A stretch of 64,000 nt of DNA, from the NCBI GenBank assembly GCA_964525555.1, contig CAZGHN010000006.1, positions 74,805-138,804 of the forward strand, given 5' to 3'. The DNA comes from an uncultured bacterium. Its GTDB lineage: Bacteria > Hydrothermota > UBA3072. Under the pieces are notes generated by a model, which searched no databases, was not told the origin of the DNA, and saw only the letters and a list, made by a program, of their open reading frames with translations. The position numbers and the translations under genes were made by a program. Below are positions 42,141-64,000 of this stretch, piece after piece. Every line of letters starts with the position of its first letter. Position 1 is the stretch's first letter.

Positions 42141-42405
42141 ACAGTATATCAGTGAATTCGTGAATCAGTAAATTAGTATACTTATTTTACTAATAACTAA
42201 GTAATGTTGCCTTTGTGTGAGAAATTAGGTTTTAGGTCTTTGGTTTTGGGTTTTAGTAAAGAAGAAAATAAAATCTCTACATGTTCTACATGTTAAAAAT
42301 TAAATGGGGTGTGTTGTGTTTTAAATAAACACACATCATTCTTTTTTTCAGTGTGCTCTGAGTTTTTTTCTTTGTGCTCTCCGTGTCTTTGTGTGAGAAT
42401 CTATT

Positions 42406-45019: not shown

Positions 45020-45043
45020 TGGTTTATTTTGCCACGAAGACAA

Positions 45044-45180
45044 ACAAAAAACATTTAACACAGAGTACACAGAGAAAAACAAAAAACACAGAGATCACAG
45101 AGAAAAAACTATGTTTCGTGTTTTTAAAACCCAACCCGCCTCAGTTAATTTTTCACATGTAGAACATGTAGGTATTGTAG
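45044..45180. repeat. ~137-bp interspersed element (family R2): four CACAGAG boxes plus conserved block with CATGT-AGA-ACATG palindrome
   Basis: Over 90 percent identical to 60998..61134; both sit just upstream of promoters of secreted-protein genes. Confidence 0.8.
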
Positions 45181-45411
45181 TTTTGTTTTTTACAATTTAA
45201 CTATTTTTCTATTTAACAATTCAACTGATTCGAAGAATCTATAACACTGATTCACCGATTCACTATTTTACTGAATCACTGCTGTCTATTGATGCAATTT
45301 TTTCATAAGTGATACCGTTGATATTTTCATTGGTGACCCCAATTATACGCCAATTACGCAATTACAGAAGATTCAAAACCAATTTCATTGATATTGAATA
45401 TCAAAGTAATC

Positions 45412-46716
45412 TTAGTCAGATACCTTGGGTTCCCATAATTTTAGTTCGCTTATACATGCGTCATTATATTTGGAACCCTTGTATATATCTTTAATAATGA
45501 ATTTGACGGATTTAGTAACATGTGGTTCGATTTTAATCTTTTGTAAATCCATAGTATCTTTTAAATCTAGATTCATTGTTGAGCCATCCGAGAATGATAT
45601 CTCAAGGGTTTTTATTCTATTATTGGCATTAAATATGGCTTTTGATTTAGAGTAACCTGAAATGATATCAATTCTTTCGATATTATATTCCTCATCGAAA
45701 TCCAATTGTATCCATTCGCCTATACCGTCTCCTTCCGAACCTTCAACCCAGGCTGTATTATCATCATTATCAAATATATTGTCTATATCATATAAAAACT
45801 TGTTATTTTTATCGGTAAGAGTAGAAGAGCAGGTCACTTTCATATGATGTCTTTGAATTAACCCTTCGTTTTTCTTTAATTCCGCGATAATATTGTCTAA
45901 GTCTAACTCATAACAATCGACAAGTAGCCCGTTATCTCTGTTTTTCTCAAGGAAATCTATGACTTCCGGATTACAGATTTCTTCTATGTGAGAAAGGAAA
46001 TCATCAATTGGATAATAAACATCAGGTTTATTTATACTTTCTTCGAACGAATTAAGAATAAAATTAAGATTTTTCTCGTACTCATGATTGACCAGACAAT
46101 AAGCTTCCGCAATCGCTAATTCCTCTCTTATTCCCTTTGGCTTGAAATTCTTTAAAACTTCTACAATCCTTTTATCTCGTAATTCTGCCAATCTCCATAA
46201 AATTGGTAATGTAGATATATTTTTACTTTTAAACGGACCATCGAATGGACTCTTATTATCTTTATTGTGTAATTCATTATAGAGTTCTTGCATAAGATAG
46301 TCAAAAACTTTTGGTTTATTTATCTTCTCTAAAATAGATAAAGCAATATATAATGAATATTCACCTTTTTCGATATATCTCTTAACTTTACTATATAAAT
46401 TTGATTTTCTATCTGATGATATTTCTTTTAGAATCGACTCAAATAAATGTAATAATTTCTTTTCTTCAATATCGTCAGATAGCGAAAAGCTTTCAATTAT
46501 ACTTTTACTGGCTTCATCTGTACCAATCTCAATTAAATTTTCATAAGCTTGTTTTATTTTTTGATGATCTTCTTTGGTATTGATGCCTTCTGCAAGAATA
46601 TTTCTAATAATATTAGCGTGACGTTCAACATCTAAATCTTGTGATTTGTCTCCATTTGCTGATAATTGATAGCAAGAGCTAACAAAACATAGAATTATAA
46701 GGATACACGTTTTCAT
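45412..46716 (-). CDS. lipoprotein with helical N-terminal region and C-terminal galactose-binding/discoidin-like domain
   Basis: Lipobox LCFVSSC; C-terminal NTAWVEGSEGDGIGEWIQLDF...ISELKLW. Confidence 0.45.
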   Translation of the reverse strand: MKTCILIILCFVSSCYQLSANGDKSQDLDVERHANIIRNILAEGINTKEDHQKIKQAYENLIEIGTDEASKSIIESFSLSDDIEEKKLLHLFESILKEISSDRKSNLYSKVKRYIEKGEYSLYIALSILEKINKPKVFDYLMQELYNELHNKDNKSPFDGPFKSKNISTLPILWRLAELRDKRIVEVLKNFKPKGIREELAIAEAYCLVNHEYEKNLNFILNSFEESINKPDVYYPIDDFLSHIEEICNPEVIDFLEKNRDNGLLVDCYELDLDNIIAELKKNEGLIQRHHMKVTCSSTLTDKNNKFLYDIDNIFDNDDNTAWVEGSEGDGIGEWIQLDFDEEYNIERIDIISGYSKSKAIFNANNRIKTLEISFSDGSTMNLDLKDTMDLQKIKIEPHVTKSVKFIIKDIYKGSKYNDACISELKLWEPKVSD

Positions 46717-46784: not shown

Positions 46785-47738
46785 TTATTCCCAATAATAG
46801 TTGGGTCCGGCAAGGTCGGTTTTCGGATTAAACACCCGGGTGTTATCTGTTGGTGAAAGCAAAGATTGTAATGTATTATCTTCGGTAAACATTATATAAA
46901 TGTTATCTTCTTTAGGGTCGAAATCTTTGAAGTTCGCGTAAAAAGCTTTTTCATCTTCTCTGCTCATGAAAAGTACGCATCCTGCACTTTTTTCACCAAA
47001 GTGAAATAAACATAAAGTTTTATAATTTTTACCCGAGGCTGATTGAGTCACTGTTAATGAAATTTTAGTCCCTATTTCATTTGGCCACAAGTCTTTTCCA
47101 CCACGATCAGAAGCGTCAAGATTAGCTATATAAAGTGGAACTCCCTTGTTGGTTTTTGTAAATGTATTACTTTCCTTAAACACACCAGCATATTTAACAT
47201 TTGATGGCACAGATAAATATGGCTTGCCATTTTCTGCTGATGTATTTGCTTGACTATTTACCCTAAATTGAGAATTTAAGATAAATTTGTCATCCGCTGT
47301 CAGCCTTAGATTATCACAGTAACCTCCCGAATACCCAACATAATTCCTTACTACATTAATATTATAATCGGTTAAGCCACCAAGGTCAATTCGATTAATC
47401 GGATCATTTGTCGCGTACACATAAGGATTTAGACTTTGTGGGCCGGTTAAAAATAAATCTTGAGGCATAAGCGTATGCGGATCAGGGGTTATAAATCTCC
47501 CGGTATTACTGCTATAATACCTTGCTCCAAAGTAATTGAATCCAGACTTATCTTTTTCCTTTCCGGTGAAATCCCTATTGTCTTCAAGTGTTCCTGAAGT
47601 GCTTAAATTTATACCAAAACTCTCATATGACTTCTCCTTCACAATATCATCCTCATCTGTAATCATAATGGGGGAACCCAGTCTGTCAAGATGATAGAAA
47701 TACAATTTCCCATCCTTTTCTTTGGCAAGGAGGCGGTT
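46785..47738 (-). CDS. orphan rhs C-terminal cassette (start-less): core end (YFYHLDRLGSP...DPINRIDLGGL) plus unique toxin tip
   Basis: Frame opens directly after a stop; homology to rhs begins at NRLLAKEKDGKLYFYHLDRLGSP; no ATG or RBS. Confidence 0.6.
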   Translation of the reverse strand, partial: NRLLAKEKDGKLYFYHLDRLGSPIMITDEDDIVKEKSYESFGINLSTSGTLEDNRDFTGKEKDKSGFNYFGARYYSSNTGRFITPDPHTLMPQDLFLTGPQSLNPYVYATNDPINRIDLGGLTDYNINVVRNYVGYSGGYCDNLRLTADDKFILNSQFRVNSQANTSAENGKPYLSVPSNVKYAGVFKESNTFTKTNKGVPLYIANLDASDRGGKDLWPNEIGTKISLTVTQSASGKNYKTLCLFHFGEKSAGCVLFMSREDEKAFYANFKDFDPKEDNIYIMFTEDNTLQSLLSPTDNTRVFNPKTDLAGPNYYWE

Positions 47739-47755: not shown

Positions 47756-48781
47756 TTATTTTTTAAGGTTAACCAGAAAAACTTTGTCCTTTGAATCTTT
47801 ATCACGCATTAAAAAAACTATCTTCAAACCATCAGGAGACCATTTAGCTGCATGGTTTTTCCTGTATTCTTCTTTGAACCCAAATATTTTCACTGATTTT
47901 CCGGTCTCTAAAGAATATATAAAGACTCCTTCGATAGTTGAATATACCAATTTTTTATCATCCGGAGAAAATGCGCCTGGTGCGAAACCTGGTAGGTATC
48001 GAAAATTATCATCGTTAAAACTAAATAACTTAATATATTTTAAAGTATTAACATTGTAAATCCAATATTCATAAACCGAATTCTCATTTTCAGAAGGCCG
48101 ATAACTAGCATAAAATAAGAACATATTTCCGTCCGAGGACCATACTGGATCCGGATAAGCGGATTTTAAGTCTGTAAGACCGGGAATAACTACTTTTTTG
48201 AATTTCTGCTCTTCCAGATTAAAAAACCACATTCTTTCATCGTAATTTGGTTCTCCCGTCAATGAATCCCTTGGATTACATAAGTCTATAACAATAAAAA
48301 GATCGGTCCGAGTTCCAAAATTTATAGCGCTATTATCGCTGGCATACCTTTGGAATCCCTCAGGGAGACTAACGCTTTTCTTCTCTCCTGACGGATATTT
48401 TATTCTAAGTGTATCTTTATATATCCTGACCACGTATTCCCTGCAGGGACTTACAGCCCAATCATATCCAAACTTCTTAATCGTGTCTACATCAAAGACT
48501 TCTTTTATATTCTCCTTGTTCTTACAATTATCATAGTATAATCTTATAAACTCCATTTCATTAATGCGTAAAGAATCTTTAGTTTCCAGGTCAAGAAGAT
48601 AATATTCGTTATAAGGTTTATATATGGTTTTACCAGAACCTCTATATAGGATTTTATTGGATTCAGTCCACTCATATAGGTATTCTATCTTGTCCGCTTC
48701 AAATATTGCCTGAGCTTTGTAATAGTCAGAGCTACACATACTTATGGTTAGACAGATTAAATTAAGATTAAATAGAAACAT
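47756..48781 (-). CDS. PD40/TolB-like beta-propeller lipoprotein (candidate immunity protein)
   Basis: Start at ATG 48781 with RBS GGAGGA; lipobox LTISMC; repeated SPDG/SSDG motifs. Confidence 0.55.
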   Translation of the reverse strand: MFLFNLNLICLTISMCSSDYYKAQAIFEADKIEYLYEWTESNKILYRGSGKTIYKPYNEYYLLDLETKDSLRINEMEFIRLYYDNCKNKENIKEVFDVDTIKKFGYDWAVSPCREYVVRIYKDTLRIKYPSGEKKSVSLPEGFQRYASDNSAINFGTRTDLFIVIDLCNPRDSLTGEPNYDERMWFFNLEEQKFKKVVIPGLTDLKSAYPDPVWSSDGNMFLFYASYRPSENENSVYEYWIYNVNTLKYIKLFSFNDDNFRYLPGFAPGAFSPDDKKLVYSTIEGVFIYSLETGKSVKIFGFKEEYRKNHAAKWSPDGLKIVFLMRDKDSKDKVFLVNLKK

Positions 48782-48862
48782 CTTGTTTCTCCTCCAATTT
48801 TTCATTTTTTTATATTAAAGATAATACATTTCTATACTTATTCATACTTACCTTAACTCATT

Positions 48863-50383
48863 TCACAATGGAGAAATATAAGGTTCAGGCTCGAAAGACT
48901 CAAAAATCGCTTGCGGTGGATCTTTCATTACTTCGCAATCCTCAGGCGTCTCTTCTGAATCATTCTTTTCGAGTTCATCAATTTGACCTGTTAAATCTTT
49001 CATATCATCATTTGATAACCTTATACACCCATTGGTAGCCCTCAGTTCTTCTGTAGCCTCGGAGAGTTTTCCTCCATGGATTCTAAATAAATCACGATTA
49101 GACTTCTTTGCTTCGCCTGATTTTGGGTCAAGAAGTATTTTTCCGTTAGGACCAAAAGAGCTTAATTTTTTCCCTGTCAATTTCGATGTACTTTGTCTTC
49201 CTGTTATGTCGTAAGTTCCGTAAGGGGTATCTCCATTTTCAGCCATCCTGTCTCTATGATTTCCTCTCCCTAAGGCATCCCAGCTTTTAACAACAATTCC
49301 CTGTCTATTGCGTAAGTATAACCTACCAGTCGTACTACGGTCGTCAGAAAAAGCAACATCTATAGACCATAAACCATTCGGGTCTACACGCGTAAGTGGC
49401 GCATTTAAACAATACACATAAGGATTCAGTTCCTGTGGGTTAGCTAACTTCAATCCTCCAGGCATCAATGTATGCGGATCGGGGGTCAGGAATCTTCCGA
49501 TACTACTACTATAATACCTCGCACCAAAGTAATTGAATCCAGACTTATCTTTTTCTTTACCGGTGAAATCCCGATTGTCTTCGTTAACACCCGTACTACT
49601 AAGGGCAGTACCGAAACTCTCATAAGATTTTTCCTTCACAATATCATCCTCATCTGTAATCATAATGGGGGAACCCAGTCTGTCAAGATGATAATAATAG
49701 ATGTGTCCGTCTTCATCTTTGGCAAGGAGACGGTTTCCCGCATAGAAATACTTCTTCGGAGGAGTTCGCTCTGAACCCGATTCGCATCGGGCGTTATCCA
49801 CCCATAATTTTCCGCCGCCTAACATTCTTGCTATATGAAACTTAAAATTAGCCGCGCCTGAAGGGATATCTCCAGGATTTATCGTTACTGAAATCTTCAT
49901 CCAGTTATTTGTGCCTGTTATTATAGCCGATGATTTCCCTCCGAAACTCTGGGACCAATCCGCACTCCAGAAATCGACCATTACTTTCACTCCTCCCGAT
50001 AGATTTTGAGTCTTTACCCAGACGGAAGCGGTAAAGGGTTTTTTTACCTCTGATAATGAATTATGCTGTATCATGAGTTCCGTTGTGCCCATAGATTGAA
50101 AGAATGGGGAGTATAGGCAATATTTACCTTCCTGGGATTGCTGGGAGGTCACAGACCAATTAAAATCACCTTCCCATTGTCCCCAGCCCGTCTTATCTCC
50201 TGTTTCAAATCCGGGATTTTCAAGAATATTAGGTGAATCATCATCTTCTAAGATGAGGTTGCCCGCGTTATCATGGAAATAATTAATTATTTCAGTATTC
50301 GAAGTAGGACAGTCGGTGATCTCCTGACGAATTCTCGGATATCCTTTATAGGAATATTTATAATTACACAAATATGTCCCGGA
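48863..50383 (-). CDS. orphan rhs C-terminal cassette (start-less): CBM4/9-like domain, rhs core end, L,D-transpeptidase-fold toxin tip
   Basis: Homology to full-length rhs from YKGYPRIRQEIT onward; YYYHLDRLGSP...DPNGL; tip contains HGG-x17-TNGCIRL (YkuD catalytic signature); only a TTG at 50371, no RBS. Confidence 0.6.
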   Translation of the reverse strand, partial: SGTYLCNYKYSYKGYPRIRQEITDCPTSNTEIINYFHDNAGNLILEDDDSPNILENPGFETGDKTGWGQWEGDFNWSVTSQQSQEGKYCLYSPFFQSMGTTELMIQHNSLSEVKKPFTASVWVKTQNLSGGVKVMVDFWSADWSQSFGGKSSAIITGTNNWMKISVTINPGDIPSGAANFKFHIARMLGGGKLWVDNARCESGSERTPPKKYFYAGNRLLAKDEDGHIYYYHLDRLGSPIMITDEDDIVKEKSYESFGTALSSTGVNEDNRDFTGKEKDKSGFNYFGARYYSSSIGRFLTPDPHTLMPGGLKLANPQELNPYVYCLNAPLTRVDPNGLWSIDVAFSDDRSTTGRLYLRNRQGIVVKSWDALGRGNHRDRMAENGDTPYGTYDITGRQSTSKLTGKKLSSFGPNGKILLDPKSGEAKKSNRDLFRIHGGKLSEATEELRATNGCIRLSNDDMKDLTGQIDELEKNDSEETPEDCEVMKDPPQAIFESFEPEPYISPL

Positions 50384-50405
50384 CTAAAATGTGTAGTTAA
50401 GTGAT

Positions 50406-50726
50406 CTACTCGATTTCTATCTCAATCCCGCCTATTTTTCGGGAAAGGAAATTGTAGAAAAGTCCTCCTAATAATCCAAATAAAAATCCACCAGTACCAT
50501 ACATAATTGGAAATAAAATGAAGCTTACTCTTCTATATATCCAGGATAGTATTGTCCCAGACAGCATAGGAGAATATCTTCCATATTCTGTTCCTATATA
50601 TATGCCTATTATTACGCCTGGAATAAGATAAAGAAAAGCGCAAATCTTCGCTACTGAAAGTACTCCTACTTTTTTTATCTCTACTACCTTTTTACCCTGT
50701 AATTCTTCTTCTTGTAAAGCTATCAT
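50406..50726 (-). CDS. small two-TM membrane protein (candidate immunity protein)
   Basis: 106 aa with two hydrophobic helices; lies between toxin cassettes. Confidence 0.4.
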   Translation of the reverse strand: MIALQEEELQGKKVVEIKKVGVLSVAKICAFLYLIPGVIIGIYIGTEYGRYSPMLSGTILSWIYRRVSFILFPIMYGTGGFLFGLLGGLFYNFLSRKIGGIEIEIE

Positions 50727-50742
50727 TATTTATTATCCCCTG

Positions 50743-51834
50743 TTATTTTTGAGGATACCAGGAGATTTCTCCGCAAGAATAAGCGTGAATCCCTATAATT
50801 TTTCTCTTATTTGTCCCGTTGTTATTCATAACCCAGATTTCAGTATATTTATCATCCTCTATCTCTTCTACAATATATGCGATAAATTTATCATCAGGTG
50901 ATACCATGGGAGAATACTCATATATATCTGGCGAATTTGTCAGGTTCTTTTGGTTTTTACCATCACTATCCATCACAAAAATTTCACTTGGGAAATCTTT
51001 GGTTTCCCTTTTTATACTCCAGTCTATACATCTGCTAAAATAGATTTTCTTGCCGTCATTAGACCAACAAGGATCAAAATCAGGAAGATTATTATTTGTC
51101 AGTCTTTTATATTTTCCGTTCTCTATATTTATTACAAAGATCTCTGAGATAGAAGATTCAAAGGCAGTTCTACTTAGAGAGTCCGGAAGGGTGTAAGGGA
51201 GCCTTGTTTGTTCCGCTTCTAATTGTGTACTAAAAGCAATTTCTTTTTCATCCGGAGAAAGAGCAAAATCACCATAAAAGTTAGCTAATTCAGGACTTAT
51301 TTTCATGGCATTAAAAGAGATTTTGGACTGGACAGTGTCATGAACTATAAACTCATATCCGTCAAGATTAAATATAATCTTTCCTGAAGAAGTAGGTGCT
51401 ATAGAACAAATAATTCCATCTAGGTCTTTATATTTCTCTCTCTCGCTTTTTGGAAGGTTTTCCCAGCATCTAATTATTCTTCTTGTTCCCGTTGTATTCA
51501 TAATATAAATATCTGGATCATCTTGCCAACCCACAATACCATCGTCATATAAACCGGTCTCAAACCTTGTCCCAAGAAATAAAATTCCCGAGCCATCTGG
51601 TAACCAGACAGGATCTTCCAGAGGGTATCTTGTATTAGTTAACTGATATAGAGTATGAGGCGAATCTACTTTAACTGCAAATATCTGGGGATCTTTAATC
51701 GGATTACTGTTTGTATCCGCGGTAAAGAGTATAGTATTTGTGAAATCCACATTAGCCGGCAATTTCTCTACTTCAGCGTTACATCCGGTTAAGATTACAA
51801 TGAAAAGAAAGAAGACATTTATTTTTTTAATCAT
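50743..51834 (-). CDS. PD40/TolB-like beta-propeller lipoprotein (candidate immunity protein)
   Basis: Start at ATG 51834 with RBS GAGGAG, 11 nt after the stop of cassette 51845..53086; lipobox ILTGC; repeated LPDG/SNDG/SPDD motifs. Confidence 0.55.
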   Translation of the reverse strand: MIKKINVFFLFIVILTGCNAEVEKLPANVDFTNTILFTADTNSNPIKDPQIFAVKVDSPHTLYQLTNTRYPLEDPVWLPDGSGILFLGTRFETGLYDDGIVGWQDDPDIYIMNTTGTRRIIRCWENLPKSEREKYKDLDGIICSIAPTSSGKIIFNLDGYEFIVHDTVQSKISFNAMKISPELANFYGDFALSPDEKEIAFSTQLEAEQTRLPYTLPDSLSRTAFESSISEIFVINIENGKYKRLTNNNLPDFDPCWSNDGKKIYFSRCIDWSIKRETKDFPSEIFVMDSDGKNQKNLTNSPDIYEYSPMVSPDDKFIAYIVEEIEDDKYTEIWVMNNNGTNKRKIIGIHAYSCGEISWYPQK

Positions 51835-51844
51835 TATGCTCCTC

Positions 51845-53086
51845 TTACCAGTTTTGAATATCCTGAGGTATGACTTGAATATTTCCGTTATCATAAGACC
51901 CAATTGGACTATAACCACTAACTGCGTTATAATGTTGAAGGAAATCATTATCATATTTGCCTCCACCTCTTTTAATAAGACTCTTCGGATCTTTTCCTCG
52001 ATGTACTTCCTTTACAAATTTTTTCATTCTTGCAAGTTCTATCTCTGCTACCTCTGCTCCGTTCTTCTGGTCTTTATAAACTTTACTAAGATCTAGCCGG
52101 TCGTAACCCTCATAACCTGGCACTATTGCTTCCTCATGTTTGTGAGCAAACATTCCCATGCAGATTTTATCTATATCCCCTTCGCGGATTGTATTCATAG
52201 TACTAAAAAGGGTAACAATTCCCCAGAAAGCAGTAGTTGGAACGCCGGTAAATGCCGCCCCAGCCCAAAACCAATCTTCACCTGTTACAATTTCTGCGGA
52301 GGGGTAAGGTATCTCTTCAGGAGCTGTGGTTAAAGCTCCTGGGAAACGTCTCCTAAGGGTTAAAAATACACTACCCATTGGTACTATCGAACCAGCTGTT
52401 TCAGCCGTCCCTCGACCCAAAGTTACCCTATATACCATATTATCTGTAGTAGTGCGGAATAGGCCTTTCTTATCCACATAATACAACGGATCATTTGTGC
52501 AATAAACATACGGATTAAATGTTTGCGGGTCCGAAAGTTCCAAATTCCCCGGCATAAGCGTATGCGGATCAGGGGATATAAATCTTCCGGTATTACTACT
52601 ATAATACCTCGCACCAAAGTAATTGAATCCCGACTTATCTTTCTCTTTACCAGTAAACTCCCTATTATCCTCATGAGTCCCACTTGATGAGACCACCGCT
52701 CCAAACCCTTCATACGTTTTATCTTTCACAATATCATCCTCATCTGTAATCATAATGGGGGAACCGAGTCTGTCAAGATGATAATAATAGAGATGACCGT
52801 CTTCTTCTTTGGCAAGGAGACGGTTTCCCGCATAGAAATACTTCTTCGGAGGAGTTCGCTCTGAACCCGATTCGCATCGGGCGTTATCCACCCATAATTT
52901 TCCTGAACCGGATAGTTTTATAAGCATTACCTTAAGGGCTTCTACTTCCCATTCGGGCATATTTCCTTCATCTACCGTTAACAATATCTTTTGCCAGTTG
53001 TTTGTTCCTGTTATTGGATTAGATGTTATAAATTTGTTATGACCGATAGAGAGTAAGAATTGTCCAATGTCGAGATGCGACCCCAA
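51845..53086 (-). CDS. orphan rhs C-terminal cassette (start-less): partial CBM-like domain, rhs core end, unique toxin tip
   Basis: YYYHLDRLGSP...NDPLYYVDKKGL; frame opens after stop at 53087-89 (TTG only); 5' end abuts tandem repeat 53079..53151. Confidence 0.6.
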   Translation of the reverse strand: MGSHLDIGQFLLSIGHNKFITSNPITGTNNWQKILLTVDEGNMPEWEVEALKVMLIKLSGSGKLWVDNARCESGSERTPPKKYFYAGNRLLAKEEDGHLYYYHLDRLGSPIMITDEDDIVKDKTYEGFGAVVSSSGTHEDNREFTGKEKDKSGFNYFGARYYSSNTGRFISPDPHTLMPGNLELSDPQTFNPYVYCTNDPLYYVDKKGLFRTTTDNMVYRVTLGRGTAETAGSIVPMGSVFLTLRRRFPGALTTAPEEIPYPSAEIVTGEDWFWAGAAFTGVPTTAFWGIVTLFSTMNTIREGDIDKICMGMFAHKHEEAIVPGYEGYDRLDLSKVYKDQKNGAEVAEIELARMKKFVKEVHRGKDPKSLIKRGGGKYDNDFLQHYNAVSGYSPIGSYDNGNIQVIPQDIQNW

Positions 53087-54957: not shown

Positions 54958-55233
54958 TTACATTGTTTTAATAAAAACATAAAAAAGAAAAAATCCTATA
55001 CAAACGCAAAGAAAACCCATTACCCTAATGTATATAATATACGATTTGCTTTTCACCCAATCTACATAGGAAGAAATATCAACGTAACGATTCCGATTGA
55101 ATATAGACATATTATATATGGCTAAATTTTGAGTCTTATAGGGGAACAGCAATACTAATACCCCCACACTGATGAGAAAGAAACCGAATAACAGAACCTT
55201 CACATTAACAAGATTTTCTGAACCCATTGGCAC
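54958..55233 (-). CDS. small two-TM membrane protein immediately after rhs (candidate immunity protein)
   Basis: 91 aa, two hydrophobic helices; starts 16 nt after the rhs stop. Confidence 0.45.
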   Translation of the reverse strand: MPMGSENLVNVKVLLFGFFLISVGVLVLLFPYKTQNLAIYNMSIFNRNRYVDISSYVDWVKSKSYIIYIRVMGFLCVCIGFFLFYVFIKTM

Positions 55234-55248
55234 TCTCTCCTTTAAATC

Positions 55249-58200
55249 TTACCACTCAATTTCTTCAAACCTATAAATCTTCCCAGAATCCCAGTAATAA
55301 GTCGCACCTAACATAGGAACATAAACACCACCTTCCGTAGTCCAACCACTTCCAAAGAAATAATCTCCTTGAACGCCAATTATAGAGCCTCCGGCTGTCT
55401 CAATAGACTTTCTGGTCAGGCATTTTGAAAGTTCGTCTTCAGTTGGCGCTCGACGCCATCGGTTCATCTTACACATAGTACCCGCTGACAAACTACCAGA
55501 TAAAGGTATTAAAGATTTTCCCAGCTGTGGGCCATGTCCAAAGTACACATTCCCATACCTATCCAACTTTAAATTTATACTATATCCAATAATAGATCCT
55601 AAATTAATAGTAAGATTAAGATAATCAGGCCATTGTCCTCTCCAAAACTCATTAACAGCTTCTTGCATCGTAGGTCCTTGATAAATACCAAGATAAAAAC
55701 CCAAATAATTGAAAAAATGATACGGATCCATACTTGATGCGGTAACGATAATAGGATCCATTAAAAATATATCATCACCTATTTGGGTCGGTTCCAATCC
55801 CCATGGGTCAAAGAAATTTACTGGATCGTTATGGCAATACACATAAGGATTAAGTGTCTGCGGACGCTCTAAATTCACAAGTAGTGGATACAAGTTAATC
55901 GGATCAGGTGTAAAAAACCTACCGATATCCGCACTGTAATACCTCGCTCCAAAATAATGGAAACCGGTCTTATCTTTTTCTTTCCCAGTGAATTCACGGT
56001 TGTCATTATATGTACCATTGGACCAGCGTAAATTCCCAAACGCCTCATATAATCTTTCTTTTACAACATTACCATCTTCATCTGTTATCATAAGCGGTGA
56101 ACCGAGACGGTCAAGATGATAAAAATGAAGGTCTCCGTCATTTTCAGTCGCAAGAAGACGGTTCCCCGCATAGATATATCTTTTGGGAGCTGTAGTCTCA
56201 CTATCGTCATCCTCGAGAATGAGATTACCCGCGATATCATAGAAGTAATTAAAAATTTCCTTAGTTCCTGCCGGATACTGTGTAATTTTCTGTCTTATTC
56301 GCTGACTCCCTTTGTAATAATAATTGTACACTCTATCGGTTTCCATTGAATTAAGCGAAACAAGATTTCCATCCACATCATAGGTAAGACTGGCATCTTC
56401 CGAGACGCTGGTAAATCCATTTATCCTGCCATTTTCATCGTATGAATAGTTAAATTCACCGTCATTCTTTAACCTGTTGGTTCCGGAATAATAAGTATAA
56501 TTAGTACTATTGACGCTTTTCCTATTTCCGACCGTATCATAGGTGAAAATGAGTGTGTAACCCGGAATATAGGGATAACGACCGTAATAAATATTTTTCT
56601 TATCCTGCGTAAGTCTTCCGAGTTTATCGTATTGGTAAGATTTTACAATATCTCCAGGCCCGTCATCATGCCTGACTTCTTGATACACCTCTCCTCGTTT
56701 ATTGTAGCAAAATTGTGCTATATAGGGGTTGGCGGAAGGAATATTCTTTATTTCCATCCAGTACATCCAATTCCTTGGTCTATATGCAAATGTATCGGTA
56801 ATTCCACCGGGGAAATTTATGCCTCTTAAGAGGCCTGCTGCTGTGGATGAAAGATTGATCGTTTTGTAATCGTTAATTTCTACCGACGAGATATTGCCAA
56901 GTTTATCATATTCATATTCGACTTTGTACTCGTCCGGGTATTCCAGTTTAGTTAATCTTCCCCACAGATCGTAGGAATATTTGAATGTCTGTTCATCTAT
57001 ATCACCAATTAATGGTATTACAAGCTTTTCCCCAAGGTTTCCGAATTTATCGTAAAAATATACTTCCCTTACATTTGGATTTTGGAAACCCGTAAGTCTT
57101 CCTTTTGGAAAATTTAATCCTGAAGGTGCAGTATAAGGTGTACCTTTTATAGTATAGTTATCGTAGAAATATTCCTCCAGTGTATCAGGGAAAAACATGT
57201 AGCTTAATGAATCGTTTGTTATCACAAGGACTGATTTAATTGAATCTAGCCAGTTTTGTGATCCATGTGCAGGATAACCAGGAATAGCGGAATCAGTATG
57301 TTGGATCGCCATCCCACAAATAGTATTCCCAATATAATCCTCGCCTGGGTAAAGAAGAAAAGAATGATCTTGTTGCCAGGTTTTATTAATTGAAGAAAAG
57401 CCTTCTTGAATGGTGAACTCGCTACCAAAAGTATCGGCCGGATTTTCGAAATACACGAATAATGAACATATTCCGAAATAATTAGGAGGGTCAAATACCC
57501 AGGTTTTTGAATTAAATCTTATCCTTATCTCTTCACCTTCATCTTGCATTACATTTGCATCCTCAATGTCCCAGTATAGCCGACCAAGTTCGCGGTGGGG
57601 ATACATCCAGCTTTTACCAGGCACATACAATAAAGTGTCTTCAACCATATAGAATAGTGTATCCGGAGCAGGATCATGTATAGCCGGATTGATTTTGGTT
57701 TTTAATCTACCAAGATTATCATAAGTATAATAGATTGAATCACCGATATTTGTTCTACGAAGCTTTAAATTCCCATCAGGATAATATTCGAATGAATCTA
57801 CGCCTCTGTCAGGACCTTCTCTACGGATTAGTTCACCTAACCAGTTATAGTTAAAATCAGTGAATTTTCCTTCTGCGCCTTCAATTTCTATTAAGTTTCC
57901 GTTTGCGTCGTAATCGTAATAAGTATGATAATCGAGAGCATCTATGACCTCTACCAAGCTGCCTGTTGCATCGTTAATTAATGTGGTATAATATCCTTTC
58001 TCATCTCTTACATCTGTTATATTCCCATTATATTCATAGGTAACAAATTCGGCTCCAGGATCTTCAGAGCTTTTGGGATATTCTATCTCGGTTACTCTTC
58101 CAAGTGCATCGAAAGTCTTTTTTACTGTGTCCGCGTTTGCTGCACTGTTAAACCGTAGTGCTGTTTCCTTATTCATACGCCCATTATTATCATAAAAATA

Positions 58201-60846
58201 TTCCTTTATTACATGCTCGCCAGGATCTCCTAATACCGAATCTTGTTTAAGCCTTCCTAACTGGTCGTAACAGTAGATTATAGTGCTTGAGTCCGAAGAA
58301 GAAGAAAAAGATTTTGCTTTTGCAATCCTGTCGAAATCGTCATATTTATATTTGTTTAAAACATCGCTGCCGATTTTATCCAGAGTAAGTCTTCCGTAAC
58401 AATCATATTCGAATTCTCTTGAAACTTCATTCTTATCAGTGTGCCCTATAAGTTGCCCATCCGAATTAAAGTCGAAGTCCTCTTTTGAGCCATCAGGATA
58501 TATTACTGTGTCAGGGAATACCTCATTAGAACAGTAATCGAATTGAGATTCCTCTCCCATGTAATCTCGCATTTTTACTAGATTCCCGCAAATGTCATAC
58601 CAGTATTCCTGTGTACGGGATTCGGAATTGTTTGTCCATTCTATTTTCTTGGTGAGGTTCCCGCGGATTTTAAAATCAGCACCAAAGTCTTCAGAATCAT
58701 GAAAACCCGGGTTAGAAATGTTGCTTAAATTAGTTTCATCATACCGAAAATAAGTTTTTCCTATTCTTTGTCCTGTAATTTTAAATTTGTGTATTGCTAT
58801 CGGAAGATTGCACAACACACGATGATGGAAATTCCAACCTCCTTCTCCACCATAGCAATCCTCACACCATTCTGCAAGCTCGATATATAGAGCATCTACT
58901 TCATGTTTAAAATGCTTTATCTCTTTCCAGCTGTCATCTAAATCCAGGTCCTCGTAAGAAATTTTTTCGTTATCAACCTTATCTAAGTCTAAGCCTGGCA
59001 TAATAGCTGTAGTAAATACAGTTAGCAAGTATGGAAAATCAAATTCTTCAATACTTTCCCATCCTATACCTGTACATTCCACATCCCCTCGATAAATGTA
59101 TTCTCTTATATTACCAAACCTATCATAACTGTTATATTCGTATAGTTCTACAATATCTCCAATACCTACCTCAAGATCAGATGGATCTTTCTGTACGGCT
59201 TTGCATTTCAATGTTGGGCGTAAATGAATTGGCGGCATAAACAAATAGAGACTATCTATTGCCCAATATAAACGCGTCAATTCTAAAGTGTCTCCTTCTT
59301 TATCAAATTTTACTACCTTGTAAGGTTTACCGTAAATAAATTTCCTTGCCTTAGGGATGACCCTTTCGGAGATTACCACCTCATCTCTACCTTCATGTTC
59401 GAAAAATCTGTAATGATCCCCATTCTCCAGATATTCATTATTAATATGCCAGTAAACTATACTATCTCCTTCGGGCATAACAACCGCGCATTTTTTATAC
59501 ATGGGATAATATCCAAATATTTGCGAATTTACCCCATGAGACCAATTATCTTTAAAATCTCCATGAGTACATTCCATTTCACCTACAGAACTCACCGCGA
59601 GTGAATCATGACCTGGATAATGATATTCATACACTAAAGTTTTGGAATCCTCAGAAAGAAAAACTTCTTTCTTTTTGATTCTGCGGTATTTGGTAGGCGC
59701 GGCGATGCCTGAGCCAGACACCGTCTCATACTCATAACTGTATTCCGCGCCGTCAGGAGTGATAAATCTGACGAGTTCCCCTGTATTATTATCATAAAAA
59801 AACTGATAAGAAGGTTTCATTTTTTGCCCTTCAAAATGAAAAGATATCGAATCCAGAAGTGCGTGTTCACGAACATACCAGTATTCAATTGCATCGTCTA
59901 AATGTTTAGCCGTATAGTAGAATTTAACCTTGTAACAACCATCGTTTATCCAATGAACTAAGCTATCAATAAGATAAAACTTATCCCAACAAGGCCTATC
60001 TGGGTAAATAGGGTCTAACATTTTAGGATAAAATTTACAGTGAGAGGTAGGAGTAATAATACTATCGGGGATTCTGCCAGCCGGAGGGCAAGGGGCCGCA
60101 TCCTGCCAGGTAAATCGCACATAATTGCCATTCCTGTCCTCCATCTCTGTTAGCATATAATCAAGTCTGCGTCTCTTCTCCGGTTCTGATGGGTACTCAG
60201 GATCGGGACCGTAATCCAGTATATTCTCGAAGGTATATTTATATTCTGGCGTTGCAACAAAAGCTCTAAGATTACTTGCGAAACCAATCCAATTTTTTTC
60301 ACCTAAAACATGCCACAACCAAGCATCAAAAACATTGAAAGTTTTTTGCACAGTGTAAAACTGCCCATTAATACACGTGAAACCCACATCGCCCGTAGCA
60401 ATATTGCCAGTTCCCGGGGATCCGGGAACAGAAAATTCTCCCGGCATTACATTCCAACCTAAACCACAGGTACCTATATCCCCAGTAACCAAAAAAGCAT
60501 CATTTAGCGCCACATTAGAATGCGAATAGCAATCACCTGGAGTGAGCTGCGTCACCGATAAGGGAGAACCTCGATAGGTTAAATATACATTATAATCTTT
60601 ATTTCCTCTCATTGGCAAACTTGTAAGTTTTATTTTGAGAGACACAGTCCCGTTTGAAACATCTATATTTTCCGCAACAGTATTAGTCGATATGGTCGTT
60701 TTGTTAAAACCTACCGAGTATGCATCAAAACCGTGTGAATACATATCCTCAGTAATTTCATCAGAGGTTTTTATTTCAAGCGAATCATAAGCGGCAAGGG
60801 GGTTAGCTACGGAACTCCCAATGTTGCCAAATAAAAATACTATCAT
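55249..60846 (-). CDS. rhs: full-length RHS/YD-repeat polymorphic toxin
   Basis: 1865 aa; many YD repeats (e.g. YEYDANGNLIEI); core end FYHLDRLGSPLMITDEDG...DPWGL followed by a ~230-aa unique C-terminal tip. Confidence 0.85.
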   Translation of the reverse strand: MIVFLFGNIGSSVANPLAAYDSLEIKTSDEITEDMYSHGFDAYSVGFNKTTISTNTVAENIDVSNGTVSLKIKLTSLPMRGNKDYNVYLTYRGSPLSVTQLTPGDCYSHSNVALNDAFLVTGDIGTCGLGWNVMPGEFSVPGSPGTGNIATGDVGFTCINGQFYTVQKTFNVFDAWLWHVLGEKNWIGFASNLRAFVATPEYKYTFENILDYGPDPEYPSEPEKRRRLDYMLTEMEDRNGNYVRFTWQDAAPCPPAGRIPDSIITPTSHCKFYPKMLDPIYPDRPCWDKFYLIDSLVHWINDGCYKVKFYYTAKHLDDAIEYWYVREHALLDSISFHFEGQKMKPSYQFFYDNNTGELVRFITPDGAEYSYEYETVSGSGIAAPTKYRRIKKKEVFLSEDSKTLVYEYHYPGHDSLAVSSVGEMECTHGDFKDNWSHGVNSQIFGYYPMYKKCAVVMPEGDSIVYWHINNEYLENGDHYRFFEHEGRDEVVISERVIPKARKFIYGKPYKVVKFDKEGDTLELTRLYWAIDSLYLFMPPIHLRPTLKCKAVQKDPSDLEVGIGDIVELYEYNSYDRFGNIREYIYRGDVECTGIGWESIEEFDFPYLLTVFTTAIMPGLDLDKVDNEKISYEDLDLDDSWKEIKHFKHEVDALYIELAEWCEDCYGGEGGWNFHHRVLCNLPIAIHKFKITGQRIGKTYFRYDETNLSNISNPGFHDSEDFGADFKIRGNLTKKIEWTNNSESRTQEYWYDICGNLVKMRDYMGEESQFDYCSNEVFPDTVIYPDGSKEDFDFNSDGQLIGHTDKNEVSREFEYDCYGRLTLDKIGSDVLNKYKYDDFDRIAKAKSFSSSSDSSTIIYCYDQLGRLKQDSVLGDPGEHVIKEYFYDNNGRMNKETALRFNSAANADTVKKTFDALGRVTEIEYPKSSEDPGAEFVTYEYNGNITDVRDEKGYYTTLINDATGSLVEVIDALDYHTYYDYDANGNLIEIEGAEGKFTDFNYNWLGELIRREGPDRGVDSFEYYPDGNLKLRRTNIGDSIYYTYDNLGRLKTKINPAIHDPAPDTLFYMVEDTLLYVPGKSWMYPHRELGRLYWDIEDANVMQDEGEEIRIRFNSKTWVFDPPNYFGICSLFVYFENPADTFGSEFTIQEGFSSINKTWQQDHSFLLYPGEDYIGNTICGMAIQHTDSAIPGYPAHGSQNWLDSIKSVLVITNDSLSYMFFPDTLEEYFYDNYTIKGTPYTAPSGLNFPKGRLTGFQNPNVREVYFYDKFGNLGEKLVIPLIGDIDEQTFKYSYDLWGRLTKLEYPDEYKVEYEYDKLGNISSVEINDYKTINLSSTAAGLLRGINFPGGITDTFAYRPRNWMYWMEIKNIPSANPYIAQFCYNKRGEVYQEVRHDDGPGDIVKSYQYDKLGRLTQDKKNIYYGRYPYIPGYTLIFTYDTVGNRKSVNSTNYTYYSGTNRLKNDGEFNYSYDENGRINGFTSVSEDASLTYDVDGNLVSLNSMETDRVYNYYYKGSQRIRQKITQYPAGTKEIFNYFYDIAGNLILEDDDSETTAPKRYIYAGNRLLATENDGDLHFYHLDRLGSPLMITDEDGNVVKERLYEAFGNLRWSNGTYNDNREFTGKEKDKTGFHYFGARYYSADIGRFFTPDPINLYPLLVNLERPQTLNPYVYCHNDPVNFFDPWGLEPTQIGDDIFLMDPIIVTASSMDPYHFFNYLGFYLGIYQGPTMQEAVNEFWRGQWPDYLNLTINLGSIIGYSINLKLDRYGNVYFGHGPQLGKSLIPLSGSLSAGTMCKMNRWRRAPTEDELSKCLTRKSIETAGGSIIGVQGDYFFGSGWTTEGGVYVPMLGATYYWDSGKIYRFEEIEW

Positions 60847-60943: not shown

Positions 60944-60980
60944 ATTGTAGGGAAAATGAAACTTTTGTCAAGAGGTTTTT
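60944..60980 (-). promoter_or_regulatory. promoter GTGGCTAA-N9-TTGACA-N16-TACAAT for rhs
   Basis: Minus strand reading of 60980-60944. Confidence 0.45.
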
Positions 60981-60997
60981 TTAGCCACACCCACCAC

Positions 60998-61134
60998 CAA
61001 AAAACATTCACCACAGAGAACACAGAGAAAAAGAAAAAACACAGAGCACACTGAGAAAAAAACTATGTTTCGTGTTTTTAAAACCCAACCCACCTCAGTT
61101 AATTTTTCACATGTAGAACATGTAGAAATTGTAG
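60998..61134. repeat. ~137-bp interspersed element (family R2), copy upstream of rhs
   Basis: See 45044..45180. Confidence 0.8.
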
Positions 61135-61253
61135 ATACTGTGTTCTCTTTGATTATTTTACTAATTAACAAATATACTAATCAACCAATTAACAGATTCG
61201 AAGAATTTTTGAATCTAAATCAAAAGATGCAATTTTTTCTTAGGCGGTACCAA

Positions 61254-61826
61254 TTATCCTCCATGCATTTTTCTTGATTCTACAATTATTGTATCCGCGT
61301 TAATTATTATGTTTAGTCCTGTTTTTATTTTTTTAAGTTCGGCTCCCATATATTTTACATTTGGAGGATATTTGATCTGGTCGCCAAAATCAAAAATCCT
61401 CATTTTATATCCTTCTTTAGCATCACCAAATAAAACAAAATGAATTACAACTTCATCACCCGAATTAAAACAGGCAATATAATATAATTGGATTGCCCGC
61501 TGTCCTAAAACAGGCAGATATGAATCAAAAACAATCTCTTTTATACCTCCAGATTCCTCGAAGTAAACTTTTTCCATCGCATCTCTGAATTCTTCAAAAG
61601 TAAATTCTTTTAAAAGATCCGGATGAAATTGTAGAAAAACTTCTTTATAATTCTTATTGAAAAGTCCAAAAAGAACCTTGTTGGTAATCGTTACTGCCTT
61701 AAAAGTGTCGTGTTCCAGCTGGCGAACACAATGAGATAGGACAATGATGGACGAAATTAAGATTAAAATTATAAAAGAACACTTTTTCTTCATATATTTA
61801 GTATATTTAGGGTCAAATCGCGGCAT
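61254..61826 (-). CDS. secreted/lipoprotein-like hypothetical protein preceded by an rhs-core-like promoter module
   Basis: RBS AGGAGG 61835-61840; upstream 61853-61881 encodes HLDRLGHPY-stop, homologous to the rhs core segment. Confidence 0.5.
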   Translation of the reverse strand: MPRFDPKYTKYMKKKCSFIILILISSIIVLSHCVRQLEHDTFKAVTITNKVLFGLFNKNYKEVFLQFHPDLLKEFTFEEFRDAMEKVYFEESGGIKEIVFDSYLPVLGQRAIQLYYIACFNSGDEVVIHFVLFGDAKEGYKMRIFDFGDQIKYPPNVKYMGAELKKIKTGLNIIINADTIIVESRKMHGG

Positions 61827-62200
61827 TGCATTATCCTCCTTTTTTATTAATGATTTTAATAAGGGTGTCCAAGCCTGTCAAGATGGGTTGAATAAGGTTA
61901 GGTTGTTAGAAGGTTAGGTGGTTTCAAAAAAAATCCGATCCAACAGTGTTTTATAACTAGTTCCTGGTACCCGGTACCTGATATCTAAAATTGACCATAG
62001 AGATCGCAGAGATTTTTAAATGTTGGTCTGTTGATCTGTTAGTCTGTTTTTTCCCCACCTACACACTAACTTTATTTATCTTTTGACCCATGACTCAAGA
62101 CGCGGGACTCACCGACTCGGTTGAAATTGTCAAGCGTTGAGATTTACCCCCAATTATTTACGTATGTACCCTCGTCTATATGAGAAGATCGTCTCTCGTG

Positions 62201-62683
62201 TTATTTATACACTAAAATAAAAATCAAAATCTCCCAGAAAGGTACAGTTAAAATCAAAACAACGCTGGAGATCCTTAACCTTTTATTTTTTCTTTCTATT
62301 TCCTCCGTTATTTTTTCCCTTTTGCTTAACACTTCCGAAGAAAAATGATAACAAGAAATTCCACTTAAAAAAAGTGCTATGGTTAAAGGAAATATATACA
62401 TCATGAAACTTCCCGGAATATTACCGAACTCGGGGACAATATCTAATATCTCCTCAACACATATCAAAAGTATGATGTAAATAACCCCTATCGCCATAGG
62501 TATACTAACCAATTTATTGGTTATCCTTAAAAACTTTTTTACTTTTTCATTCCCTATAAAAGGAAAGAAAGGACGATATAGTTTCACAACAGCACCTACG
62601 TATTTATCTGCAAAGAAAAAGAAAGTTAAAAATAAAAGATAGAAACAGTAAATCCCTAAAGCGGCTAAGACTTTAATTGCCAT
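62201..62683 (-). CDS. four-TM membrane protein immediately after an rhs toxin tip (candidate immunity protein)
   Basis: 160 aa with several hydrophobic helices; begins 4 nt after the stop of 62687.. Confidence 0.5.
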   Translation of the reverse strand: MAIKVLAALGIYCFYLLFLTFFFFADKYVGAVVKLYRPFFPFIGNEKVKKFLRITNKLVSIPMAIGVIYIILLICVEEILDIVPEFGNIPGSFMMYIFPLTIALFLSGISCYHFSSEVLSKREKITEEIERKNKRLRISSVVLILTVPFWEILIFILVYK

Positions 62684-62686
62684 TTA

Positions 62687-64000
62687 TTATTTTCCCTCCC
62701 ATACAATAAAGGCAGAGGCGCCTAAACCACCGACAACAAAGACTCCTGACTCCACATAAAATCCACTCCACCATGGGTTAGCGGGACCCCAACCCACCTG
62801 AGTACCTAAAACAAATCCTGCTTGAACACTTATGTTCAAACCAGGAGAAGGCTCCTTATAGCCATCATTTACCATTACCATGGCACCCGGAGGTATACTT
62901 ACACTTGGAGAGATCCCAAGATAATAATATGGTTTTCCATCGTCAGTGATTATTTTTCCTCCAGTAATTATTACTACACTTACACCTAAATCTACGTAAT
63001 CAACCGAAGGATCCTCCTCAAAGTGCTTGGCAAACGTTGCCCAGTCTGGATCCTTTTTTGTATCGTCTTGACCCTTTTCATTAAAAACACCCGTCTGAGC
63101 ATTAGTACTGGTATTATCAGCAGCAACAAAAGCCCAGGAAGGGTTATCGAAATACATAATTGAACCAGACCCATACTGATTAATTATATCCTGCTGCCTT
63201 TTATAATCCCAATACGCAATGGGATCTTCTTCATAGCTTATTGGTGACTCTTGTAATCCTAATAAATCCACATATTTAAGTGGGCTATTTCTACAGTAAA
63301 TATACGGATTTAAACTCTGTGGAATTGCCAATGTAAGCCCAGCGGGCGTAAGCGTATGCGGATCAGGGATCAGGAATCTTCCGATGTCGCCGCTGTAATA
63401 TCTCGCGCCGAAGTAATGAAATCCTGTCGGGTCTTTTTCCTTTCCCGTGAATTCTCGGTTATCTTCGAGTGTACCTGAAGAAGATACTAAGTTACCAAAT
63501 GCTTCGTATTCTCTCCGTTTTACCACAATACCATTCTCATCTGTAATCATAATCGGAGAACCAAGACGGTTAAGATGATAGAAATGAAGCTCTCCGTCGA
63601 TTTCGGATGCAAGGAGACGGTTTCCAGCATAATAGTATTTCGTTTCAGGTGTTCGCTCGGTTCCCGATTCACATCTGGCGTTATCAACCCATAGTTGTCC
63701 ACTTCCTAACATTCTTGCTATATGAAATTTGAAATTAACCGCGCCGGAAGGTATATCTCCAGGATTTATCGTTACTGAAATCTTTTGCCAGTTATGTGTG
63801 CCTGTTATTATTGCCGATGATTTGCCTCCATAACTCTGAGACCAATCCTCACTCCAGAAATCGACCATTACCTTCACTCCTCCCGATAAATTCTTAGTCT
63901 TTACCCAGACGGAAGCGGTAAAGGATTTTTTTACCTTTGATAATGAAAATTGCTGTATCATGAGTTCCATTGTGCCCATCGTTTGAAAATATGGGGAGTA
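62687..64000 (-). CDS. rhs: RHS toxin C-terminal region (CBM4/9-like domain, core end, unique tip); N-terminus beyond window end
   Basis: Frame open to nt 64000 (YSPYFQTMGTMELMIQQ parallels the orphan cassettes); HFYHLNRLGSP...VDLLGL then a unique ~200-aa tip. Confidence 0.7.
   Translation of the reverse strand, partial: YSPYFQTMGTMELMIQQFSLSKVKKSFTASVWVKTKNLSGGVKVMVDFWSEDWSQSYGGKSSAIITGTHNWQKISVTINPGDIPSGAVNFKFHIARMLGSGQLWVDNARCESGTERTPETKYYYAGNRLLASEIDGELHFYHLNRLGSPIMITDENGIVVKRREYEAFGNLVSSSGTLEDNREFTGKEKDPTGFHYFGARYYSGDIGRFLIPDPHTLTPAGLTLAIPQSLNPYIYCRNSPLKYVDLLGLQESPISYEEDPIAYWDYKRQQDIINQYGSGSIMYFDNPSWAFVAADNTSTNAQTGVFNEKGQDDTKKDPDWATFAKHFEEDPSVDYVDLGVSVVIITGGKIITDDGKPYYYLGISPSVSIPPGAMVMVNDGYKEPSPGLNISVQAGFVLGTQVGWGPANPWWSGFYVESGVFVVGGLGASAFIVWEGK

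Follow-up and report, generated by a model that had tools for sequence, protein, structure and literature searches.

Can the immunity position behind an Rhs toxin tip be held by a large beta-propeller protein? Polymorphic toxin loci, those of the Rhs type included, are searched for new toxins and antidotes, and screens usually seek small cytoplasmic proteins in that position. The locus described here lies in a 64,000-nucleotide (nt) stretch of an uncultured Hydrothermota bacterium from a lineage related to candidate division WOR-3 (UBA3072; assembly GCA_964525555.1, contig CAZGHN010000006.1, positions 74,805 to 138,804), called the window below, in which two orphan rhs C-terminal cassettes are each followed by the gene of a PD40-repeat protein (propeller 1 and propeller 2). 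From gene order, comparison with related loci and modelling, we propose, at a probability of roughly 0.65, that each propeller would be the cognate immunity protein of the Rhs tip encoded just upstream. The genes concerned are listed in the order in which they are read, with window coordinates and lengths in amino acids (aa).

53086..51845, minus strand: orphan rhs cassette 1, with a carbohydrate-binding module (CBM)-like remnant, the Rhs core end and tip 1 (~51848-52459); Rhs_assc_core, 3.8e-18
51834..50743, minus strand: propeller 1, a 363-aa lipoprotein with PD40 match and lipobox
50726..50406, minus strand: 106-aa membrane protein with two to three transmembrane segments, between propeller 1 and cassette 2
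50371..48863, minus strand: orphan rhs cassette 2, with a CBM_4_9-like insert, the Rhs core end and tip 2 (~48866-49366); Rhs_assc_core, 1e-18
48805..47756, minus strand: propeller 2, an exported PD40-repeat protein of 349 aa (341 aa from the ATG at 48781)

The two propeller genes

An earlier sequence-only reading of the region had described two propeller lipoproteins close behind toxin cassettes, as possible immunity proteins or receptor/adaptor components. Both open reading frames (ORFs) are present on the minus strand, and the cassettes upstream match the Rhs-associated core model (TIGR03696, Rhs_assc_core) at 4e-18 and 1e-18. The close spacing holds as well. The ATG of propeller 1 lies 10 nt past the TAA of cassette 1, and a GAGGAG ribosome-binding site fills the spacer (...tggTAAGAGGAGcataATG). 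Propeller 2 starts 57 nt past the stop of cassette 2, or 81 nt past it with the second ATG (48781), which has a GGAGG site 9 nt upstream, better than that of the first ATG. Both proteins pass the Pfam PD40 (PF07676) gathering cutoff of 20.9 bits, propeller 1 at 60.9 bits and propeller 2 at 30.2 bits, and both give weak DPPIV_N matches in Pfam; they have no detectable kinship with each other beyond the repeat motif. Export signals are present in both.

The N-terminus of propeller 1 (MIKKINVFFLFIVILTGC) carries a canonical lipobox, LTGC, at residues 15-18 (pattern used, [LVI][ASTVI][GAS]C), and L15 and C18 are kept in at least 90% of 19 homologues. An AlphaFold2 model built on the 19-sequence alignment (predicted local distance difference test score [pLDDT], 83; predicted TM-score [pTM], 0.85) has 23 strands, about six blades, with the beta-strands beginning at residue 34, directly past the lipobox. 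Its top fold matches in the Protein Data Bank (PDB) are TolB propellers (E, 3e-14; TM-score, ~0.6; 15-16% identity), among them TolB-colicin complexes, and a profile search gave weak matches to TolB and to an Agrobacterium 'putative TolB'. Propeller 1 is thus confidently modelled as a roughly six-bladed TolB-like propeller. Internal-repeat searches (self-BLAST, hhalign) recovered little past two or three blades.

Resemblance in fold does not make propeller 1 a TolB, because its scores against the TolB equivalog models (NCBIfam TIGR02800 and NF002183; 66.4 and 34.1 bits) are far under the cutoff of 343, the TolB N-terminal domain is absent (no Pfam match to TolB_N, PF04052, in either propeller) and its neighbours are rhs cassettes, not a tol-pal operon. 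TolB membership was rejected on score, domain content and gene context. Of 185,579 species-representative genomes, just 2 contain a member of the family, and one of the 2 bears the label candidate division WOR-3. Conserved housekeeping genes such as Tol-Pal components, which the earlier reading had named as the outcome that would tell against it, are therefore not what we see: propeller 1 is not TolB, and its family is rare.

Tip 1 and propeller 1 across lineages

Among 5.8 billion proteins, the propeller-1 family forms 19 clusters of 45-100% identity. Gene contexts were readable for 11 propeller-1 lineages (homologues 51-80% identical), and a tip-1 homologue stands 10-113 nt upstream of the propeller in 7 of these 11 independent lineages, with the following gaps between tip and propeller.

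Window: 10 nt; reference
L141: 45 nt; tip 72% and propeller 80% identical
L131 and L132-134: 28 nt; tip 75% and propeller 77% identical
L094: 46 nt; a putative Y1-type transposase gene truncates the tip
L008: 40 nt; within another orphan array
L143: 40 nt; orphan cassette
L005 and L014: 113 nt; a complete Rhs protein of 2121 aa carries the tip at its C-terminus

As to whether such a propeller always follows its tip, a point raised by the sequence-only reading, it does so behind every tip-1 homologue found, including P0214, the sole database match to tip 1 alone. By contrast with this linkage to one tip family, ~110 fetched loci with generic PD40 relatives held zero Rhs cores within 6-8 kb. This distribution shows tip 1 and propeller 1 moving jointly, as a single module, from one genome to another as well as between orphan arrays and a full-length rhs gene. 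That a tip and its downstream gene move as units is argued by a second pair, since the neighbouring cassette in L008 combines a homologue (52%) of the tip of the window's main rhs gene with a homologue (94 aa, 72%) of the 91-aa protein encoded behind that gene. The identities of tip and propeller covary weakly (Pearson 0.68, over 15 non-independent pairs). With co-inheritance in seven lineages behind it, the earlier proposal of immunity is well supported for propeller 1, which we regard as quite a likely candidate for the immunity protein of tip 1.

For tip 1 itself, neither Pfam (E up to 10) nor a profile search of the PDB gave a relative, and the search of a protein database yielded just one close homologue. 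Six tip-1 homologues share an invariant D...GMF...H...L.K...KN pattern. A Kyte-Doolittle scan of tip 1 found zero transmembrane segments, and a pore-forming tip was dropped from consideration for that reason. The predicted site of action of tip 1, periplasm or envelope, is deduced solely from its periplasmic partner.

In L094 (208-1507), a 279-aa ORF takes the place of the Rhs core of the tip-1 cassette; the tip is truncated, and the propeller and a 106-aa gene are intact. Judged by eye, the N-terminus of this ORF resembles that of a Y1/IS200-type or repetitive extragenic palindrome (REP)-associated tyrosine transposase. The locus looks like a toxin being lost while its immunity genes stay.

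Tip 2 and propeller 2

Tip 2 scores 36.2 bits against Pfam YkuD (cutoff, 23.4) and 27.6 bits against Tlde1_dom, under the cutoff of 30.1, and its sequence shows the catalytic His (in RIHGG) and Cys (in TNGCIRL); the same cassette gives a CBM_4_9 match of 21.9 bits. By these matches tip 2 is a predicted L,D-transpeptidase (YkuD/Tlde1-like) enzyme. Tlde1a is toxic only if directed to the periplasm, where it acts on peptidoglycan, and Tldi1a carries a Sec signal (PMC9638812); L,D-peptidase toxins have secreted or transmembrane immunity proteins (Zhang et al. 2012; PMC3482391). Because an L,D-transpeptidase/Tlde1-like domain acts in the periplasm, tip 2 would need an exported antidote.

Significant PD40 matches of propeller 2 are confined to residues ~210-349, and its N-terminal 200 residues match nothing. 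A HMMER scan of 1.84 billion representatives returned just generic PD40 repeat matches to residues ~210-349. The single-sequence model is poor (pLDDT, 49) and all-beta, and matches only propellers (TM-score, ~0.37). The immunity case for propeller 2, made from its position and the compartment logic with tip 2, is in our judgement slightly better than even; here the sequence-only reading stands on weaker ground, as the protein has no relatives.

Proposed mechanism

If the propellers are immunity proteins, an exported, lipid-anchored propeller would sit in the periplasm, bind the incoming or self-made toxin domain and block its active site. By likeness to Tsi1 and X-Tfi with peptidoglycan hydrolases, contact with the toxin would be made through variable loops. 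In propeller 1 the candidate contact loops are two segments, residues ~92-105 and ~205-230, where the family varies most and is richest in indels; two of the low-confidence stretches of the model (92-98, and lower-confidence blocks within 205-230) fall within them. Homologous recombination in the repeated core could move tip and propeller as a module onto the main rhs gene, so that the toxin is changed and the cell is still immune.

Evidence against immunity and alternative explanations

Several observations weigh against this proposal. The compartment argument for module 1 is circular, because tip 1 is without recognisable activity, and the 106-aa membrane protein next to propeller 1 is a rival immunity or co-immunity candidate. 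PAAR, VgrG or another secretion marker was looked for in these Rhs proteins, and none was found. The lipobox-like ISMC of propeller 2 is non-canonical at position -1, and the sequence-only reading, which had called both proteins propeller lipoproteins, is to that extent borne out in full for propeller 1 and, for propeller 2, in its PD40 repeats. A word-indexed search of 5.8 billion proteins found no full-length relative of propeller 2 but itself. Lastly, the propeller occurs without any Rhs tip in 4 of the 11 lineages (L001, L136, L002, L135, L138-140). In L001 and L136 it follows a conserved 211-aa membrane protein, between the methionine aminopeptidase and transglutaminase genes, a syntenic housekeeping position that could mean a toxin-independent function; in L002 it follows a 157-aa protein with multiple transmembrane segments, in L135 it has no upstream gene and in L138-140 it adjoins HicAB.

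Polymorphic toxin systems often include orphan immunity genes, and the toxin-less propellers are for that reason compatible with immunity. The flanks of L001 and L136 are 81-82% identical, but their propellers just 65%, and the propeller of L136 is nearest (77%) to the Rhs-linked propeller of L005; this pattern points to a fixed site at which the propeller changes fast or is exchanged. The 211-aa protein, which precedes the propeller in the segments L001 3166-4946 and L136 851-2577, has two N-terminal transmembrane helices and a soluble domain, and is 82% identical between the two genomes.

The 106-aa membrane protein could be the real immunity protein of tip 1, with propeller 1 an accessory (co-immunity factor, stabiliser or unrelated cargo). 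Most Rhs immunity proteins are small, and both the main tip and the upstream RhsA tip of this window have small transmembrane proteins after them (91 aa and 160 aa); the 106-aa gene starts 16 nt past propeller 1, and homologues with 62-73% identity follow the propeller in L094 (73%), L132-134 (62%) and L142. Yet L008, L005, L141 and L143 all have tip and propeller without a 106-aa homologue, the propeller being followed at once by the next cassette in L008 and by an IS110 transposase in L005. Since a toxin is not maintainable without an antidote and the propeller is the invariant partner, the propeller is the better immunity candidate, and we think it rather improbable that the 106-aa protein has this role. 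The 106-aa protein gave zero family matches (Pfam, NCBIfam-type models). It looks like an optional add-on of one module-1 sub-lineage. The propellers might otherwise be helpers of the toxins (a periplasmic adaptor, a factor for activation or maturation, or a receptor-like component on which export or activity of the Rhs tip would depend), perhaps besides immunity. There are precedents in PefE, reported necessary for PefD activity, and in a Tli immunity protein that activates its lipase (10.1101/2023.03.28.534661). TolB-type propellers are also binding platforms exploited by colicins, as the TolB-colicin complexes among the fold matches recall, and export of Rhs proteins without markers of a type VI secretion system (T6SS) may run through the periplasm. 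Known Rhs chaperones and adaptors, such as the chaperones of the Eag/DUF1795 type, work however in the cytoplasm, and their genes stand ahead of the rhs gene and not past the tip; nothing would make a pure helper persist toxin-less, yet four lineages keep the propeller alone, and tips 1 and 2 would be left lacking an immunity gene in L008 and L005. We consider a helper role unlikely, and the receptor/adaptor alternative of the earlier reading found no support.

A further explanation would make the propellers ordinary proteins of the periplasm (TolB paralogues, peptidase-associated propellers or binding proteins) that are functionally unconnected to the toxins and alongside which rhs cassettes have piled up. 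PD40 lipoproteins are very common (1592 matches to the repeat region of propeller 2 alone), and the rhs-free homologues beside the methionine aminopeptidase and transglutaminase genes and beside the HicAB pair would fit such a history. It accounts poorly for a family this rare that fails TolB membership, for the linkage to one tip family in seven lineages against none of the generic PD40 loci, and for the position of propeller 1 between cassettes in the window and in L008 and directly after a full-length Rhs in L005; we hold it to be very unlikely. Least probable of all, in our estimate, is that a lipid-anchored TolB look-alike would act as a decoy, capturing the import motif of the tip in the periplasm and so stopping its entry. 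Group A colicins enter via the TolB-type propeller of the target, and the decoy idea presupposes that these Sec-type Rhs tips likewise enter by grabbing such a propeller. If true, it would be a new immunity mechanism, and would explain both the recruitment of unrelated PD40 propellers twice in one array and the persistence of propeller-only orphans.

The surrounding rhs array

The propeller genes belong to a minus-strand rhs locus; read from high to low coordinates, it has a main rhs gene and, behind it, three orphan rhs C-terminal cassettes. Its remaining features are as follows.

63979..62687, minus strand: upstream rhs gene, C-terminal part, followed by a 160-aa protein with multiple transmembrane segments and a 190-aa protein
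60846..55249, minus strand: full-length main rhs gene of 1865 aa, ending in a toxin tip of its own; RHS_repeat (1e-22) and RHS matches
55233..54958, minus strand: 91-aa protein with two transmembrane segments, 15 nt past the main rhs stop
Between the 91-aa gene and the orphan cassettes, opposite strand: tetratricopeptide repeat (TPR) gene
47705..46785, minus strand: orphan rhs cassette 3; Rhs_assc_core, 1.3e-17
46716..45412, minus strand: 434-aa lipoprotein ending in an NADase-type F5/8 glycan-binding domain; not a propeller

Loci with a main rhs gene and orphan toxin/immunity modules classically have this layout. Core-coding DNA is present in five copies across the region. Each cassette consists of a conserved core-end coding sequence, a distinct toxin tip and a downstream gene; the orphan cassettes are 64-77% identical to the main gene up to a DPxGL-type core end and diverge completely past that point. 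The 91-aa protein is likely the immunity protein of the main Rhs tip. The tip of the upstream partial Rhs is glycine-rich and hydrophobic, the 160-aa protein (four transmembrane segments) starts 3 nt later (62683-61254 region), and the 190-aa protein next to it has an N-terminal hydrophobic anchor; upstream tip and downstream gene(s), 61254-62683, probably form another toxin/immunity pair. An anti-phage defence function was rejected, as PADLOC gave zero matches.

Cassette 3, its lipoprotein and the 106-aa ORF had gone unmentioned in the sequence-only reading. Tip 3 has no significant Pfam or PDB match, and a second L,D-transpeptidase was rejected here: the motif HFGEKSAGC is a mere resemblance without support from either database. 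The 434-aa lipoprotein starts 68 nt past the cassette 3 stop, the immunity position, and has a VSSC lipobox and matches to NADase_transloc (2e-39) and NADase_discoid (5e-46); its N-terminal part matches no family. In L008 (4535-6485), a tip with a HEMTH metallopeptidase-like motif is followed 19 nt later by a 364-aa lipoprotein without Pfam match. It seems that this lineage tends to place large lipoproteins behind its Rhs tips.

The orphan cassettes are described as promoter-less. Within the core coding sequence of each (YHLDRLGSPIMITDED) there is an 11/12 sigma-70-like match (TTGACA, 16 nt, TATGAT) on the minus strand (52776-52749, 49686-49659 and 47689-47662), with a weaker version in the main rhs gene at 56114. 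It could serve the orphan tip and the partner gene as an internal promoter, or be a mere by-product of conserved codons. A CBM_4_9-like carbohydrate-binding insert lies just ahead of the core end in cassette 2 (49800-50230), cassette 1 (52900-53086) and the upstream rhs gene (63500-63979); the main rhs gene is without it at the equivalent point (ILEDDDS...APKRYIYAGNRLLA), and the full-length Rhs of L005 has a related segment.

Two copies of a ~240-nt repeat (blocks 83-96% identical; 45021-45254 and 60974-61222) stand just upstream of an S8 protease gene and of the main rhs gene and bracket the entire 16-kb rhs array; a third, partial and inverted copy is on the opposite strand at 42277-42309, downstream of the S8 protease gene. 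The repeat contains a CTCTGTG motif four times and CTACATGTTCTACATGT, and an Rfam scan of the region gave no match. Its role might be that of a shared promoter or leader; a mobile repeat or the boundary of an island would also fit.

Comparison with known systems

The sequence-only reading had called propeller-type partners of this size unusual. In favour of that judgement, zero beta-propeller immunity proteins were known to Zhang et al. 2012 (PMC3482391); it is softened by Tsi1, X-Tfi(XAC2610) and PefE, described since. A literature search for PD40/TolB-like propellers as immunity proteins found no linking paper, a limited search that is not proof of novelty. If the proposal is confirmed, a common interaction fold once noted as absent among immunity proteins would join the immunity repertoire in complete form, tip 1 would be a new envelope-acting toxin family, and size or fold filters in immunity-gene screens would miss real cases. 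The general understanding of how Rhs systems work is left unchanged.

The Tse1-Tsi1 pair of Pseudomonas aeruginosa (a T6SS amidase and its antidote) is alike in that Tsi1 is periplasmic and an antiparallel beta-sheet propeller fragment, a partial propeller whose nearest resemblance is to DPP-IV (PMC3391265), and in that Tse1 targets peptidoglycan, which is also the predicted target of tip 2. Far smaller and soluble, Tsi1 has three sheets of a propeller, whereas the window proteins have 340-360 aa, appear to be complete six-bladed propellers and are at least in one case lipid-anchored; there is no sequence relationship, and the carrier here is Rhs, not a free T6SS effector. X-Tfe(XAC2609)/X-Tfi(XAC2610) of the Xanthomonas type IV secretion system (T4SS) offers a lipobox protein, X-Tfi, with a signal peptide and propeller-like topology that inhibits a periplasmic peptidoglycan hydrolase (PMC10933484). 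It differs in its T4SS and lysozyme-like toxin, PD40 repeats are not reported for it, and the likeness is by description alone. In the PefD-PefE operon of a Proteus mirabilis PAAR effector, the immunity position is taken by the gene of PefE, a predicted beta-propeller (bioRxiv 10.1101/2023.03.28.534661); PefE is also reported necessary for effector activity, toxin and carrier differ, and this comparison too is by description alone.

Tlde1-Tldi1 (T6SS) is the counterpart on the toxin side, tip 2 having YkuD above threshold, Tlde1_dom below it, and the His and Cys kept. Unlike Tlde1, a stand-alone T6SS effector, the domain is here fused to an Rhs core in an orphan cassette, and its partner is a PD40 protein without known relatives, set beside Tldi1 by description alone. 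TolB, the best structural match to the propeller 1 model, has PD40 repeats, periplasmic location and six blades in common with it; propeller 1 differs in being lipidated (predicted) where TolB is soluble, in being without the N-terminal domain, in its 15-16% identity and in its rare, patchy distribution. Set against these systems, the locus most probably consists of ordinary Rhs toxin/immunity modules, and the probable new part is an antidote in the form of a complete PD40 propeller lipoprotein.

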